Origin: an uncultured Gammaproteobacteria bacterium
GTDB taxonomy: Bacteria; Patescibacteriota; Microgenomatia; Daviesbacterales; UBA10151
Direction of reading: 5' to 3'
Length of the DNA stretch: 59,291 nt
NCBI GenBank assembly: GCA_964524895.1
Contig: CAZGFG010000004.1
Location: 20,469 to 79,759 of the forward strand
A program made the position numbers and the translations under genes. Below, one piece after another: positions 13,132-16,780 of the stretch. Under the pieces are notes generated by a model. That model saw only the letters and a list, made by a program, of their open reading frames with translations, was not told the origin of the DNA and did no database searches. Positions within the stretch are counted from its first letter, which is position 1. Each line of letters opens with the position of its first letter.

Positions 13132-13205
13132 GGGCGGATAGCTCAATTGGTTAGAGCATCAATCTTATACATTGAACGTTCCTGGTTCGAGTCCAGGTCC
13201 GCCCA
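13132..13205 (+). tRNA. tRNA-Ile (anticodon UAU)
   Basis: cloverleaf: GGGCGGA/TCCGCCC acceptor, TCAAT-CT TAT AC-ATTGA anticodon arm, TTCGAGT T-loop; extended -10 TGTTATAAT at 13114-13122. Confidence 0.93.
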
Positions 13206-13281
13206 CAGCAAATACATGATTTAATGTGATAAAAGATCGACCCACCCCTAGTGGTTTTTCAGGTTCAGGTCCCATACTAAT

Positions 13282-14154
13282 TTATAACTCTTCTAATTTG
13301 ATCTTGCCTTCGCCGGCTTGGCCTTGCAAAAATTGCAGATATCTTTCAGTAGTTGATAACCTCTTATGCCCTGCCAATTTGGAAACTACTAGTAGGGAAG
13401 TACCGGATTGAAGTTGGTGGGCCACCCAGGTATGGCGCAAATCATTAACCTTGGCCCCTTTAATACCGGCAATTCTGAAATATCTGTCAATGGCAGTCCG
13501 GATATTTCTGATAAGAAGTGGTTTGCCGGTTTTGGTAATAAACAATGAATGGGATTGGGTTTTTGGCCTAATCTCCAAATATTTACCTACAGCTTCTGCT
13601 GCAGGTTTATTTAGAGGAATTATCCTTTCGTTGGCACCTTCAAAAGGGGGAACATGCAAAGTTGCAGATTCTGTTAGGTTAACATCTTCCACTCTAAGTT
13701 TGGAAAGCTCTCCAATCCTGATACCGGTTTGCAAAAGCAGCTCTATAACAGCCAACATCCTGATATCTGCTCTGGCAGCGTCTCTTAATGCCCGATATTC
13801 AAGCTTTGAGAGGATCCTGGGGGGTTTATTTTCAAATTTAGGGTGTTCTAAACCGGTGGCCGGGTCCTCATTGGTTATACCTGAAGATTTTAAGAATTTG
13901 AAAAAGGTTTTAGTAGAATTGGTTTTACGGGAGATGGATTTTGGGGTGTAGTTTTCTTTGGCTAGTTTGTCCATAAAAGCCTGCAGATCCTCGGTAGTAA
14001 CCTGATTTGGTTCGTTCTTTCCCAACCCCTCTAAGAACTTAACAAGTTGATCGATGTCCTTCCCGTAGGCTAAAATAGTAGCGGATGCGCGTGACCTACC
14101 TTTTAAATGTCCTATAAATTGCTGATGTGCATCTTTCAAAGATATCATTGGCAT
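13282..14154 (-). CDS. XerC/XerD-like tyrosine recombinase
   Basis: N-terminal SAM-like domain, TGIRIGE, DLRHTW, LAGH...TTERY; promoter TTGACA-N17-TACAAT just upstream. Confidence 0.92.
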   Translation of the reverse strand: MPMISLKDAHQQFIGHLKGRSRASATILAYGKDIDQLVKFLEGLGKNEPNQVTTEDLQAFMDKLAKENYTPKSISRKTNSTKTFFKFLKSSGITNEDPATGLEHPKFENKPPRILSKLEYRALRDAARADIRMLAVIELLLQTGIRIGELSKLRVEDVNLTESATLHVPPFEGANERIIPLNKPAAEAVGKYLEIRPKTQSHSLFITKTGKPLLIRNIRTAIDRYFRIAGIKGAKVNDLRHTWVAHQLQSGTSLLVVSKLAGHKRLSTTERYLQFLQGQAGEGKIKLEEL

Positions 14155-14208
14155 ATATTGTAAGTTTATAGGATATTGTTGTCAAGTAGAAAGGCACAAA
14201 TTAAAGCT

Positions 14209-14559
14209 ATGTTTAAAAAATTTGGGCTGGTAATAGTAACTATTTTGGTATTGGTAATTATTTACAACTTGATATCCCGAATTATAGATGCTGTTAAATC
14301 TGGAGAAAGGCTAAGCCAGTCTGCACAGCAGTTGCAAAAATTGGAAACGGAAAATAAGGAACTCAAAGAAAGATTGGAAGAGGTAAAATCCCAACTTTTT
14401 ATAGAAGAACAGGCCCGAAATAAATTGGGATTTTCCAAAAAAGGGGAAACCCTGGTCATTATTCCGGAGGAGAAGATTAAGCAAATATTAGGAGCTAGCC
14501 AATCTGCTCAACTTCGTTTACCCAACTGGCAAGGCTGGTTAAAACTATTTTTTCAGTGA
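14209..14559 (+). CDS. septum formation initiator (FtsL/DivIC family)
   Basis: TM helix, coiled coil, EEQARNKLG..KKGE motif. Confidence 0.85.
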   Translation: MFKKFGLVIVTILVLVIIYNLISRIIDAVKSGERLSQSAQQLQKLETENKELKERLEEVKSQLFIEEQARNKLGFSKKGETLVIIPEEKIKQILGASQSAQLRLPNWQGWLKLFFQ

Positions 14560-14566
14560 GTCTGTG

Positions 14567-14832
14567 TTGCGGGGGTGGGAGTTGAACCCACTGCCTCAAG
14601 ATTATGCTCCTACCCTGATTACTCAAGGGGTTGGACTATATCATCACCCCGACATTAGTCGGGGGCCCGGCGTGTAGTCTCTACGGGGTCCTTCGACTAT
14701 GCTCAGGACTTCCCTCGGATATTGTCCTAAATGTTTAGGGTGTCTACCGATATAGCCAGGTTTGCTCCGACAATTACTCATCGGAGGGCCCACTTCTACT
14801 AGCCTTGTGTGCAACCGTTACACTTCCCCGCG
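14567..14832 (-). tRNA. initiator-type tRNA-Met (CAU) interrupted by a group I intron; exons 14801-14832 and 14567-14606
   Basis: spliced product CGCGGGG...CAAGG CT|CAT AA TCTTG...GTGGG TTCAACT CCCAC CCCCGCA A, with the C1:A72 mismatch typical of initiators. Confidence 0.9.
14607..14800 (-). ncRNA. group I self-splicing intron, 194 nt, IC3-like, inserted between U33 and C34
   Basis: P1 GGCU/GGCC with U.G at the splice site, P2 with GUAA loop, P3 CCUGGC/GCCGGG, R GUAGAGACUA, S GAUAUAGUCC, P8, P9 with GUAA loop, terminal G. Confidence 0.92.
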
Positions 14833-14844
14833 ATAACATTAGGT

Positions 14845-14908
14845 ATTCTATGCCCAAGTTATCTTTATGTCAAGCTTTCTTGACATTTAATAAATACTAT
14901 TGTAGTAT
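14845..14908. promoter_or_regulatory. back-to-back divergent sigma70 promoters
   Basis: minus strand TTGACA-N17-TAGAAT (14873-14845) for the tRNA; plus strand TTGACA-N17-TAGTAT (14880-14908) for the HTH gene. Confidence 0.8.
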
Positions 14909-14929
14909 GTAAATATATCCCATTAATCA

Positions 14930-15610
14930 ATGATTCGTAAATTCAAAGAACACCAAAAAGCTTTATTTCTAAGACAGAATGGTAAAAGCATTCGGCAAAT
15001 AGCAAAGTTACTCAAAATAAGCCCTAGCACTGCTAGCAAATGGTGTAAACATATTAAGCTATCTCCTAAACAACAAGAATTTTTATTAAATAGTGAATCT
15101 AGAACCTCTCATTTAAGACGCCTAGCAAAACAATCTCATAGGAATAAATTGTTGAGGGTTAAAGAGTTAACTAGTGAAGCTAAAGCTGAAATTAAGCATC
15201 TTAATAAAAACGAACTATTTTTAACCGGTTTAGCACTTTATTGGGCAGAGGGATTTAAAAGTTTGAAGGAAGGGAGAGTGGGTTTCTGTAACTCAGATCC
15301 TAAAATGATTAAGTTTTTTATTAAATGGCTTAAAAGATCTTTTGATATAAAGCCGGAAGATTTAATTTTAAGGGCAGAATTTAATGAGTCTCATGAGTAT
15401 CGTAAGGAAGAGATAGAAAAGTTTTGGTCAAAAACTACTAGGATTCCGAAAGAACAGTTTGAGAGGTCTTTTTACCACAAATCTATATGGTTGAAGAGAT
15501 ATGAGAATCCAGAAAATTACTATGGAGTGTTAAGGATAAGAGTGCGTAAAAGCAGCGAGTTGCTGACTAGAATTAGAGGATGGATTGACGGTCTTAGATA
15601 TGCAGCCTAA
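14930..15610 (+). CDS. HTH + single-motif LAGLIDADG-like protein
   Basis: N-terminal HTH (SIRQIAKLLKISPSTASKW), LTGLALYWAEG, FCNSDP.MI.FF, YGVLRIRV. Confidence 0.7.
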   Translation: MIRKFKEHQKALFLRQNGKSIRQIAKLLKISPSTASKWCKHIKLSPKQQEFLLNSESRTSHLRRLAKQSHRNKLLRVKELTSEAKAEIKHLNKNELFLTGLALYWAEGFKSLKEGRVGFCNSDPKMIKFFIKWLKRSFDIKPEDLILRAEFNESHEYRKEEIEKFWSKTTRIPKEQFERSFYHKSIWLKRYENPENYYGVLRIRVRKSSELLTRIRGWIDGLRYAA

Positions 15611-15731
15611 GTTATAAGTAAACTTACATGCTAAAGCGATCTTTTTAAGTAACAGGTTCTAACAACTTGCAGCCCACAACAAATTCATTTTAGTCCTTGA
15701 AAAGTACTGAAATTGGTGATATCATAGCCTC

Positions 15732-15995
15732 ATGATTACCCAACAAGCTCAAATAAAAATAAATCTTCCGCTAGCTCTTAAAGAATTTTTGGAAAGTAAG
15801 GCTGGTAAATTTGGTATGCCTTTAGCAGGGTACATTAAACATTTAATGCTTAAAGATGTTGAAAATATGGATTATCCTGCCTTTGTACTCTCTGACAAGT
15901 CTGAAAGAGCCTTAAAAAAAGCCTTGAAGGAAAAAGATAAAGCTGTCCTTATTAAAAACAAGGAAGAGTTAGATAAGTTCTTTAAGGATCTGTGA
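15732..15995 (+). CDS. antitoxin-like ribbon-helix-helix protein
   Basis: QIKINLP..LKEFL...A...G...YIKHL; overlaps the downstream toxin gene. Confidence 0.7.
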   Translation: MITQQAQIKINLPLALKEFLESKAGKFGMPLAGYIKHLMLKDVENMDYPAFVLSDKSERALKKALKEKDKAVLIKNKEELDKFFKDL

Positions 15996-16333
15996 AACCT
16001 CTCAAGTTTAGTCCTGATGTATATAAAAAACTAAAGGAAATTCAACTTAAGAACGTAACTTTACATAAAAGAATTCAGAAACAACTATATTTGTTCATAA
16101 ACAATCCTCGCCATAAATCACTCCGTCTTCATAAAATCGAAAGGCGTGACAGCTTAAGTATTTGGAGTATCTCCATCGATAAAAGCTATAGAATGCTATA
16201 TAAAGAAAACGAAGTGATTTACTTCTTTGGTATAGGAACTCATGACGAAGTTTATAAGCGAAGCTTGAAGGCATCGCCGAAAGCTGAACTTTCAGGCTCT
16301 GCCTATAAGCGAGCTAGAAAGGTTTCCTTATAG
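15992..16333 (+). CDS. RelE/YafQ-like type II toxin with a C-terminal extension
   Basis: SLRLHKI, WSISI..SYR, IGTHDEVY. Confidence 0.8.
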   Translation: MKPLKFSPDVYKKLKEIQLKNVTLHKRIQKQLYLFINNPRHKSLRLHKIERRDSLSIWSISIDKSYRMLYKENEVIYFFGIGTHDEVYKRSLKASPKAELSGSAYKRARKVSL

Positions 16334-16513: not shown

Positions 16514-16780
16514 GTGAATTTCTACTATGTTTATGTACTTCAAAGTCTGAAGCTAGATTGGATTTATGTAGGATCCACATCTGATCTTCGTCAAAGATTT
16601 AAAAGTCATAATAATGGAGAAAATTTATCTACTAAGGGATACAAACCGTTTAAATTGATTTTCTATGAAGCTTATTTAAGTAAGAAAGATGCCTTAAGAA
16701 GAGAAGAATATTTTAAAACCTCTAAAGGTAAAACTACTTTAAAAACTATGTTAAAAGAATATTTTTCTGGAAAATATTAA
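16514..16780 (+). CDS. GIY-YIG nuclease (second subfamily)
   Basis: YYVYVLQS..., YVGST.DL..R...HN.G, A..RE.YFK. Confidence 0.9.
   Translation: MNFYYVYVLQSLKLDWIYVGSTSDLRQRFKSHNNGENLSTKGYKPFKLIFYEAYLSKKDALRREEYFKTSKGKTTLKTMLKEYFSGKY

Follow-up and report, generated by a model that had tools for sequence, protein, structure and literature searches.

In an uncultured, ultra-small groundwater bacterium of the Candidate Phyla Radiation (CPR), the initiator tRNA gene is split by an intron and has a divergently oriented protein gene beside it. What kind of gene is this, and does it owe its place there to the intron? The locus lies in a stretch of 59,291 nucleotides of contig CAZGFG010000004.1, the whole of which is referred to here as the window. 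It contains a free-standing, intact and conserved open reading frame (ORF) of 226 amino acids, which is separated by 97 nucleotides from the 5' end of a divergently oriented tRNA gene with the anticodon CAU (14567-14832, minus strand) that is interrupted by a group I intron without an ORF of its own. This back-to-back arrangement had been described correctly in an earlier interpretation made from the letters of the window (the sequence-only reading), which suggested that the two genes may form an intron/endonuclease partnership (collaborative homing or a trans-acting maturase) or that the protein may be a domesticated tRNA-linked regulator. The reading that we prefer is that the ORF is a free-standing selfish gene similar to homing endonuclease genes which can persist only if the tRNA gene is protected by the intron, a situation known as collaborative homing, and we consider this reading to be evenly poised between right and wrong.

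A survey was made of 96 genomes of the same order, in which every copy of the protein family was fetched with its flanks and scanned for tRNAs and introns. Orthologs of the window ORF (50-72% identity, eleven genera) were found beside an intron-split initiator tRNA gene in fourteen out of fourteen cases, including a copy with two stops in genome G049, and none of the 27 unsplit initiator alleles has an ortholog beside it (Fisher P = 2e-5, the test on ORF-intron co-occurrence being uncorrected for phylogeny). Split alleles without a neighbouring ORF were observed in sixteen genomes, and 82 of the 96 genomes have no ortholog. Within a single genus (g61) all three states of the initiator locus occur, namely empty, with the intron only, and with both the intron and the gene.

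A clean empty site was observed in genome G085, where a gene of 458 amino acids is followed by 24 nucleotides and then by the tRNA. At this point two relatives (G084 and G074) carry an insertion of about 790 nucleotides made up of the opposite-strand ORF and the promoter palindrome, and the intron is also present in both of them. The left flank and the leader are shared with the empty allele, and homology resumes at the -10 box, about 16 nucleotides before the +1 position of the tRNA. An essential gene thus receives a new -35 box from the inserted cassette, as the -35 box and the spacer of the tRNA-side promoter in the relatives belong to the cassette and the -10 box and leader are common to the empty sites.

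Homologs lying beside tRNA genes whatever their intron status, and showing no nuclease or maturase activity, were an outcome that the sequence-only reading had set against a partnership. The first half of this was indeed found for the wider family, the window's own subfamily being the exception. A total of 98 family copies were found in 56 of the 96 genomes, with zero to five copies per genome and some of them with internal stops. At least 88 of the 98 abut a tRNA gene, an adjacency that by our own estimate would arise by chance for about 0.3% of ORFs. Seventy-five copies lie directly 5' of a tRNA on the same strand, with the stop codon -79 to +41 nucleotides from the tRNA 5' end and often reading into the tRNA, and the fourteen orthologs of the window ORF are divergent and lie 65-141 nucleotides from the tRNA 5' end; the G049 locus (L005) was counted in both groups as it also has a tandem tRNA-Met. 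This locus had been a candidate for an ortholog beside an intronless tRNA and was rejected, since a divergent split initiator tRNA is present and the downstream tRNA is an elongator tRNA-Met.

Each subfamily goes with a particular tRNA species (Met, Arg-TCT, Arg-CCT, Lys, Ile-TAT, Trp, Val-GAC, Gly, Gln, Ala, Ser and Pro). Intron-split Asn and Thr tRNA genes were also found among the family neighbours, where it should be noted that ARAGORN labels of intron-bearing tRNAs (Leu-CAA, Asp, Thr) are unreliable because the program assumes an intron at 37/38, and that exons were read by hand for the initiator tRNA only. A group I intron lies beside only 22 of the 98 copies, and a family copy beside only 22 of the 148 introns. 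The primary association of the family is therefore with tRNA genes and not with introns, and since the wider family adjoins tRNAs regardless of introns, the proposed intron partnership survives as a property of the window's subfamily.

In twelve of the 75 tandem loci, a leftover 5' part of the cognate tRNA was found upstream of the ORF at a distance of 46-211 nucleotides. These 5' stubs are 18-46 nucleotides long and score above all control alignments, and most of them run from tRNA position 1 to 34-36; most loci are without a stub. One of them belongs to a paralog in the window's own genome (L002 on contig C5, 36% identical), in which a tRNA-Val(GAC) stub covering positions 1-35 lies at 1405-1439 and the ORF (1471-2187) reads 34 nucleotides into the full tRNA-Val gene (2153-2227). 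From its sequence, this arrangement points to an insertion junction inside the anticodon. The junction of the stubs in the anticodon loop coincides with the insertion site of tRNA group I introns, and it is the expected product of one-sided repair of a break at that place.

The duplicated tRNA 5' part that flanks the ORF at these twelve loci would also suit a site-specific insertion element that does not home, in which the helix-turn-helix (HTH) and the C-terminal domain would make up a transposase- or recombinase-like protein inserting its own gene at tRNAs, and the association with introns would arise because only some alleles can bear an insertion. In keeping with this, the position of the insertion is tightly defined with respect to the tRNA 5' end, the HTH resembles those of transposases and resolvases (HTH_23, HTH_7; N-terminal matches to IS630, IS21 and IS3), and no known nuclease fold matches the domain. 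We nevertheless think such an element unlikely, as neither terminal inverted repeats nor a target duplication of fixed length were seen, the stubs being variable in length and mostly missing, the cassette consists of the ORF and promoter only, and a clean empty site with flanking homology is the product of repair-mediated homing. A different kind of explanation for one subfamily per tRNA species is a tRNA-directed toxin or defence gene, that is, a nuclease acting at the RNA level which is kept beside a resistant or spare tRNA copy. A toxin-antitoxin-like pair does lie directly downstream (15732-16333), although this is an impression at the sequence level to which Pfam and PADLOC give no match. 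With no PADLOC match to the ORF, an HTH that indicates DNA binding, and an adjacency that follows the logic of an insertion site (ORF ends overlapping tRNA 5' ends, stubs and empty sites), we regard a toxin as very improbable.

For collaborative homing, the following course of events is proposed. Family members behave as selfish mobile genes that are specific in their sites and settle at tRNA genes, each tRNA species having its own subfamily. At the window locus a cassette of about 0.8 kb, comprising the ORF and a bidirectional promoter, lies where the host's one initiator tRNA gene has its promoter. The anatomy of the locus, the linkage of the family to tRNA genes, the presence/absence polymorphism with its empty site and the confinement of the ORF to split alleles are observed, and nuclease activity, target site and direction of transfer are what we infer: the protein would be a DNA endonuclease, its domain being either a strongly diverged LAGLIDADG or a new fold, that cuts intronless initiator-tRNA genes in or near the DNA of the anticodon loop. 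By splitting this cut site, the group I intron would make the host's only initiator tRNA gene immune, and when an intronless allele has been cut and is repaired with an occupied allele as the template, the intron would be copied together with the ORF about 50 bp away (collaborative or trans homing). Frequent later loss of the ORF would then give rise to the intron-only alleles. Immunity is the simplest constraint that could link ORF and intron. Collaborative homing and the intronless homing of free-standing endonuclease genes have both been established (PMC3984707).

Extended to the family as a whole, this would make the C-terminal domain an unrecognised catalytic family of homing endonucleases, with either a new fold or a LAGLIDADG fold changed past recognition, that has radiated into thousands of lineages in CPR bacteria, with each lineage cutting the anticodon-loop region of one tRNA species, a generalisation that we hold as tentative and more doubtful than the case of the window itself. 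The tandem subfamilies would survive by carrying a replacement for the tRNA 5' part, leaving the 5' stubs behind, and subfamilies of the window type by pairing with a group I intron as a shield for the initiator tRNA gene, which is essential and present in a single copy.

Apart from the uncorrected co-occurrence test, several observations on the loci and on the protein weigh against a homing endonuclease. On the intron tree, ORF-linked and ORF-less introns are intermixed with eight changes, as in label shuffles. The ORFs of the window's genome (G000) and of G049 are sisters and their introns fall into different clades with 99/99 support, and the same conflict was observed for G086 and G066. 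These incongruent trees led us to reject the strict rule that the ORF and the intron move together in a single cassette; the conflict implies that the two are linked by constraint and not by strict co-inheritance. The length of the orthologs is constant at 226 amino acids with 50-66% identity, which is unusually uniform for a homing endonuclease gene, and no copy was found by tblastn among 50,697 phage records (INPHARED). In addition, three relatives (G084, G002 and G082) carry a 3' stub of the tRNA-fMet gene, covering positions ~54-74 from the T-loop to the discriminator base, behind the ORF stop and in the ORF orientation. These 3' stubs are not explained by a simple homing model and may be relics of an inversion or of an ancestral state in which ORF and tRNA stood in tandem.

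The predicted structure adds to these difficulties. Two AlphaFold models were obtained with a predicted local distance difference test score (pLDDT) of 88 and 91.7, the latter for the domain, where the predicted template modelling score was 0.85. The domain follows the order a-b-a-b-a-b-b-a (a, helix; b, strand) as compared to a-b-b-a-b-b-a in LAGLIDADG proteins, so that a helix lies between strands 3 and 4 and the first hairpin is missing, unlike the canonical topology. Foldseek searches against the PDB returned no LAGLIDADG protein among the top 50 matches; OmpA-like/YfiB and IspF folds were matched best, with a template modelling score (TM) of about 0.4 (~0.44 for the OmpA-like ones), and none reached E<1e-3. 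Several viral proteins bearing inteins or endonucleases were matched in BFVD at TM 0.35-0.48, none of them significantly, the best with TM 0.48 and a root-mean-square deviation of 2.8 A over 123 columns. No significant link to any nuclease family was found in Pfam, NCBIfam or PHROG, by hhalign (probability <=2%) or by Foldseek.

The other role suggested by the sequence-only reading, a trans-acting maturase that aids splicing of the ORF-less intron, has in its favour the strict intron neighbourhood of the window's subfamily and the fact that LAGLIDADG proteins can act as maturases. It was not borne out by the survey. The sixteen genomes with a split allele and no neighbouring ORF carry introns that are sister to the ORF-linked ones, and in three genomes (G026, which is 100% complete, G075 and G091) the intron is present with no family member anywhere in the genome, from which it follows that the intron does not need this protein. 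As intronless tRNAs also adjoin most of the subfamilies, a maturase is to be considered highly improbable.

Is the protein then a LAGLIDADG enzyme at all? The motif LTGLALYWAEG...FCNSD, which the sequence-only reading had picked out, was found to be real and its key residues to be invariant. E107 and G108 end a predicted helix (residues 93-107, motif LxGLALYWAEG), giving the conserved helix with a terminal acidic residue and glycine that is looked for in LAGLIDADG proteins, and LxGLALYWAEG-K, followed by a strand with NSDP at its end and then by a helix, makes up a series similar to a LAGLIDADG unit. LAGLIDADG enzymes (I-DmoI, I-CreI; PF00961, PF03161, PF14528) and the ORF domain have in common a helix ending in (D/E)-G, a strand, and a helix with a hydrophobic-x-x-W/L-L pattern; the ORF differs from them in its N-terminal HTH and in the extra invariant NSDP. 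Sequence searches of the PDB were carried out with a single sequence and with three profiles. I-DmoI came out on top, never at a significant level; with the family profile E was 0.023 over the full length and 0.5 when the domain alone was used. The matching segment is motif 2 of I-DmoI (YVAEGDK...NKNKALLEIVSRWL), in which the E of YVAEGDK aligns with E107; we take this residue to be the catalytic E117.

For a LAGLIDADG fold, as distinct from the motif, no confirmation was obtained. At E<=10, hmmscan returned HTH models only and none of the LAGLIDADG models of Pfam (PF00961, PF03161, PF14528, PF14527). Comparison by hhalign with alignments built from the same genomes was not significant either for LAGLIDADG_3 of CPR bacteria (P 0.025-0.048) or for LAGLIDADG_1 (P 0.06-0.19), and the positive control of LAGLIDADG_1 against LAGLIDADG_3 gave E 2.2e-5. 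Two weak collinear profile matches were observed, one of a1-b2-a2 to LAGLIDADG_3 and the other of YGVLRIRVRKSSELL to b4-a3 of LAGLIDADG_1. Going by its sequence, then, the C-terminal domain is LAGLIDADG-like in motif only, and the models suggest that it may be either a LAGLIDADG derivative which has lost the first hairpin and gained a helix, or a different fold.

The family to which the ORF belongs was found to be large. Its 263 close homologs are nearly all 226 amino acids long and 50-66% identical, the named sources are Patescibacteria, Daviesbacteria and Microgenomates, and no functional name is attached to any of them. A profile of the C-terminal domain matched 5047 cluster representatives at E<=1e-3 and 3130 at E<=1e-10 among 1.84 billion, counted as clusters at 50% identity. 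The HTH claimed by the sequence-only reading was confirmed with Pfam, which also found it in 22 of the 22 paralogs tested, and NCBIfam gave weak matches of the N-terminus to the N-termini of transposases. The C-terminal domain has no Pfam model and had no match when the ORF, 21 paralogs and ten long relatives were compared with Pfam, NCBIfam, PHROGs and PADLOC, nothing but the HTH being recognised; no paper describing the family was found either. The ORF is a member of a very large unannotated family of Patescibacteria (CPR) in which an HTH is joined to a conserved 136-residue domain with the invariant signature E-G-x-K ... N-S-D-P.

Seven C-terminal residues (Y104, E107, G108, K110, N121, D123 and P124) are invariant in an alignment of 34 orthologs and 21 distant paralogs. 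The alignment with the 21 distant paralogs shows further invariant positions in the C-terminal domain (W166, F177, G199 and G217) and in the HTH (R15, G18, S20, S36 and W38). E107, G108, K110, N121 and D123 are candidates for an active site. Proteins of 424-576 amino acids with the domain in duplicate are among the matches of the C-terminal profile. Some members of 376-576 amino acids carry two C-terminal domains, and some of these also two HTHs (P0121-P0128, P0145, P0188); they could be tandem fusions comparable to endonucleases with a double motif, or fusions of neighbouring copies that arose during gene calling.

The features of the locus are collected in Table 1. Both of the near-consensus divergent promoters that the sequence-only reading had placed within about 65 bp were recovered, and they fit within 64 bp. 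The position at which that reading let the locus begin (14845) is a genuine feature, the -10 box on the tRNA side, and not the beginning of the ORF, whose ATG is the first start past an in-frame stop. At the far side, the contig of a relative carries ...CATCCCACCCCCGCAAC immediately before the position equivalent to 15683, and the decayed tRNA-fMet remnant of the window probably marks the far end of the cassette.

Table 1. Coordinates of features at the initiator tRNA locus; positions are those of the window except in the last row, where they are those of the named loci.
Feature	Position	Strand	Remarks
ORF of 226 amino acids: N-terminal HTH, long linker helix and 136-residue uncharacterised C-terminal domain	14930-15610	+	Intact
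HTH, residues 10-39	14957-15046	+	Pfam HTH_23, E 2.9e-7, above curated cut-off
C-terminal domain, residues 91-226	15200-15607	+	Without Pfam model
LAGLIDADG-like motif LTGLALYWAEGFK, residues 98-110	15221-15259	+	E107, G108 and K110 invariant
N-S-D-P, residues 121-124 (FCNSDP, 119-124)	15290-15301	+	Invariant; closes first strand
Promoter-like site facing ORF, TTGACA-17-TAGTAT	14880-14885 / 14903-14908	+	10 of 12 matches
Promoter-like site facing tRNA, TTGACA-17-TAGAAT	14873-14868 / 14850-14845	-	11 of 12 matches
Perfect 8-bp inverted repeat ATGTCAAG-cttt-CTTGACAT	14867-14886		Two divergent -35 boxes
tRNA(CAU) exon 1, tRNA positions 1-33	14801-14832	-	Terminal U
Group I intron, 194 nucleotides, ORF-less	14607-14800	-	In anticodon loop between U33 and C34
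tRNA(CAU) exon 2	14567-14606	-	Begins CAUAA
tRNA-fMet 3'-end remnant GGTTCTAACAACTTGCAGCCCACAACA	15655-15682	+ (ORF orientation)	Decayed
3' tRNA-fMet stubs of other loci	L012 2181-2201; L014 2178-2198; L007 2185-2195		Intact

Together, the -35 boxes of the two promoters make up a perfect inverted repeat, a layout that is kept in the orthologous loci that were read. The repeat is a possible operator for the HTH of the ORF, which raises the alternative of a domesticated, non-catalytic DNA-binding protein that binds the palindromic -35/-35 region and regulates both the tRNA gene and itself. A conserved HTH, strong purifying selection and the constant length of the orthologs are all in keeping with a regulator. 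Some homing endonucleases, such as I-TevI, double as autorepressors, and for this reason binding to the palindrome would not exclude collaborative homing. A domesticated regulator seems improbable to us given that the gene is dispensable, with 27 genomes having the same tRNA without it, that where present it is inserted into the promoter of the tRNA, that copies with internal stops exist as in G049, and that regulation would not call for E, K and D residues kept invariant in a domain of their own throughout subfamilies serving at least thirteen tRNAs.

The group I intron was identified with Rfam RF00028 at 52.9 bits (cut-off 50), and ARAGORN overlooks the tRNA because this intron splits the gene. 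Exon 1 ends in GGCU, which can pair with the intronic GGCC and so form the U.G pair of P1, and the last base of the intron is G. Splicing gives a tRNA of 74 nucleotides whose C1xA72 mismatch, together with its CAU anticodon, makes it initiator-like. The exon boundaries are confirmed by intronless copies in 27 related genomes that are 84-99% identical to the spliced tRNA, and the exon letters flanking the insertion site are the same in split and unsplit alleles. Metatranscriptome contigs of relatives contain a joint that skips exactly the 194-nucleotide intron, where spliced RNA is indistinguishable from intronless alleles. An apparent empty-site joint from 14831 to 15687 in such contigs was rejected as the two ends of one 5-kb contig.

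In this initiator-type tRNA the D arm (AAGUGUAACGGYUGCACA) is unusual, and the anticodon stem lacks the run of three G-C pairs that bacterial initiators typically have; a version with a canonical D arm, likewise split by an intron, was observed in G002 and G032. The window's own genome carries three more group I introns outside the window (C11:23669-24793; C4:11249-11533), one of which adjoins a canonical LAGLIDADG_1 ORF (C11:24491-24793, 82.7 bits) and probably lies in an rRNA gene. Ordinary LAGLIDADG genes therefore coexist with the family studied here.

Several neighbouring genes were also noted. Downstream of the ORF, a promoter-like element with TG (15687-15726, TTGAAA-17-TATCAT) precedes the antitoxin-toxin-like pair, which is made up of overlapping genes for 87 and 113 amino acids, and these 40 nucleotides recur at high depth in many unrelated metatranscriptome contigs. 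The window also contains a gene for an 88-residue free-standing GIY-YIG domain protein (16514-16780, plus strand; Pfam E 2.9e-17). A different mini GIY-YIG gene (MWYLYILLCKDGSLYTG...) stands in the relatives divergently at about 28 nucleotides from the initiator tRNA 5' end, in empty and occupied loci alike, and is thus a second nuclease-type gene at the initiator tRNA locus. Between loci L133 (G073) and L140 (G086), the segment consisting of the mini GIY-YIG gene, the ORF where present and the initiator tRNA is inverted between the same flanks, which consist of the DivIC-like gene and the 458-residue gene. The locus is a hot spot of rearrangement, and throughout the genus the genes around this tRNA occur in scrambled order. 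Genes for a tRNA-Ile(UAU), a tyrosine recombinase of the XerC/D type (Phage_integrase, E 5e-28) and a DivIC-like septum protein adjoin the initiator tRNA gene on its 3' side (13132-14559). In most relatives the position of the DivIC-like and Xer genes is the same, which marks them as chromosomal neighbours and not as parts of the cassette.

The closest parallel is the collaborative homing described in phages (PMC3984707), in which, as in the window's subfamily, the gene is found only with intron-bearing alleles and the intron would protect the host gene by splitting the site of the enzyme; empty, intron-only and intron-plus-gene alleles coexist among close relatives here as they do there. The window differs in that its host is a cellular CPR bacterium and the target a tRNA gene, with target and activity both predicted, in that its protein is no recognised GIY-YIG, HNH or LAGLIDADG enzyme, and in the disagreement between the ORF and intron phylogenies. 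Phage T4 offers a second parallel in SegB, a free-standing GIY-YIG homing endonuclease in a tRNA gene cluster. Like SegB, the window gene would be a free-standing selfish nuclease gene among tRNA genes that promotes the inheritance of its own tRNA region. Unlike SegB, which is a GIY-YIG enzyme of a phage, the window family occurs in cells across the CPR, with a separate subfamily for each tRNA species, and its members lie against the tRNA 5' end or run into it. As summarised in the article on phage collaborative homing, the group I intron of the cyanobacterial tRNA-fMet gene encodes the endonuclease I-Ssp6803I within itself (Bonocora & Shub 2001, cited in PMC3984707). In the window the intron is ORF-less, and the candidate gene lies outside it in divergent orientation. 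I-Ssp6803I belongs to the PD-(D/E)XK class.

Should the protein prove to be an endonuclease, the locus would be a cellular case of collaborative homing, so far described in phages, at a single essential initiator tRNA gene, and the spread of very small ORF-less tRNA introns in Patescibacteria would be accounted for. By supplying a new -35 box, the cassette rewires tRNA transcription, and the presumed selfish gene has in this way come to be part of the promoter of an essential gene. The domain could prove to be a new endonuclease family, and the pattern of one subfamily per tRNA would then represent a natural series of compact sequence-specific DNA enzymes. If the wider proposal of a homing endonuclease family radiated across CPR bacteria were true, it would explain the mobility of their ORF-less tRNA introns and provide a large natural library of compact nucleases that are programmable by paralogy.

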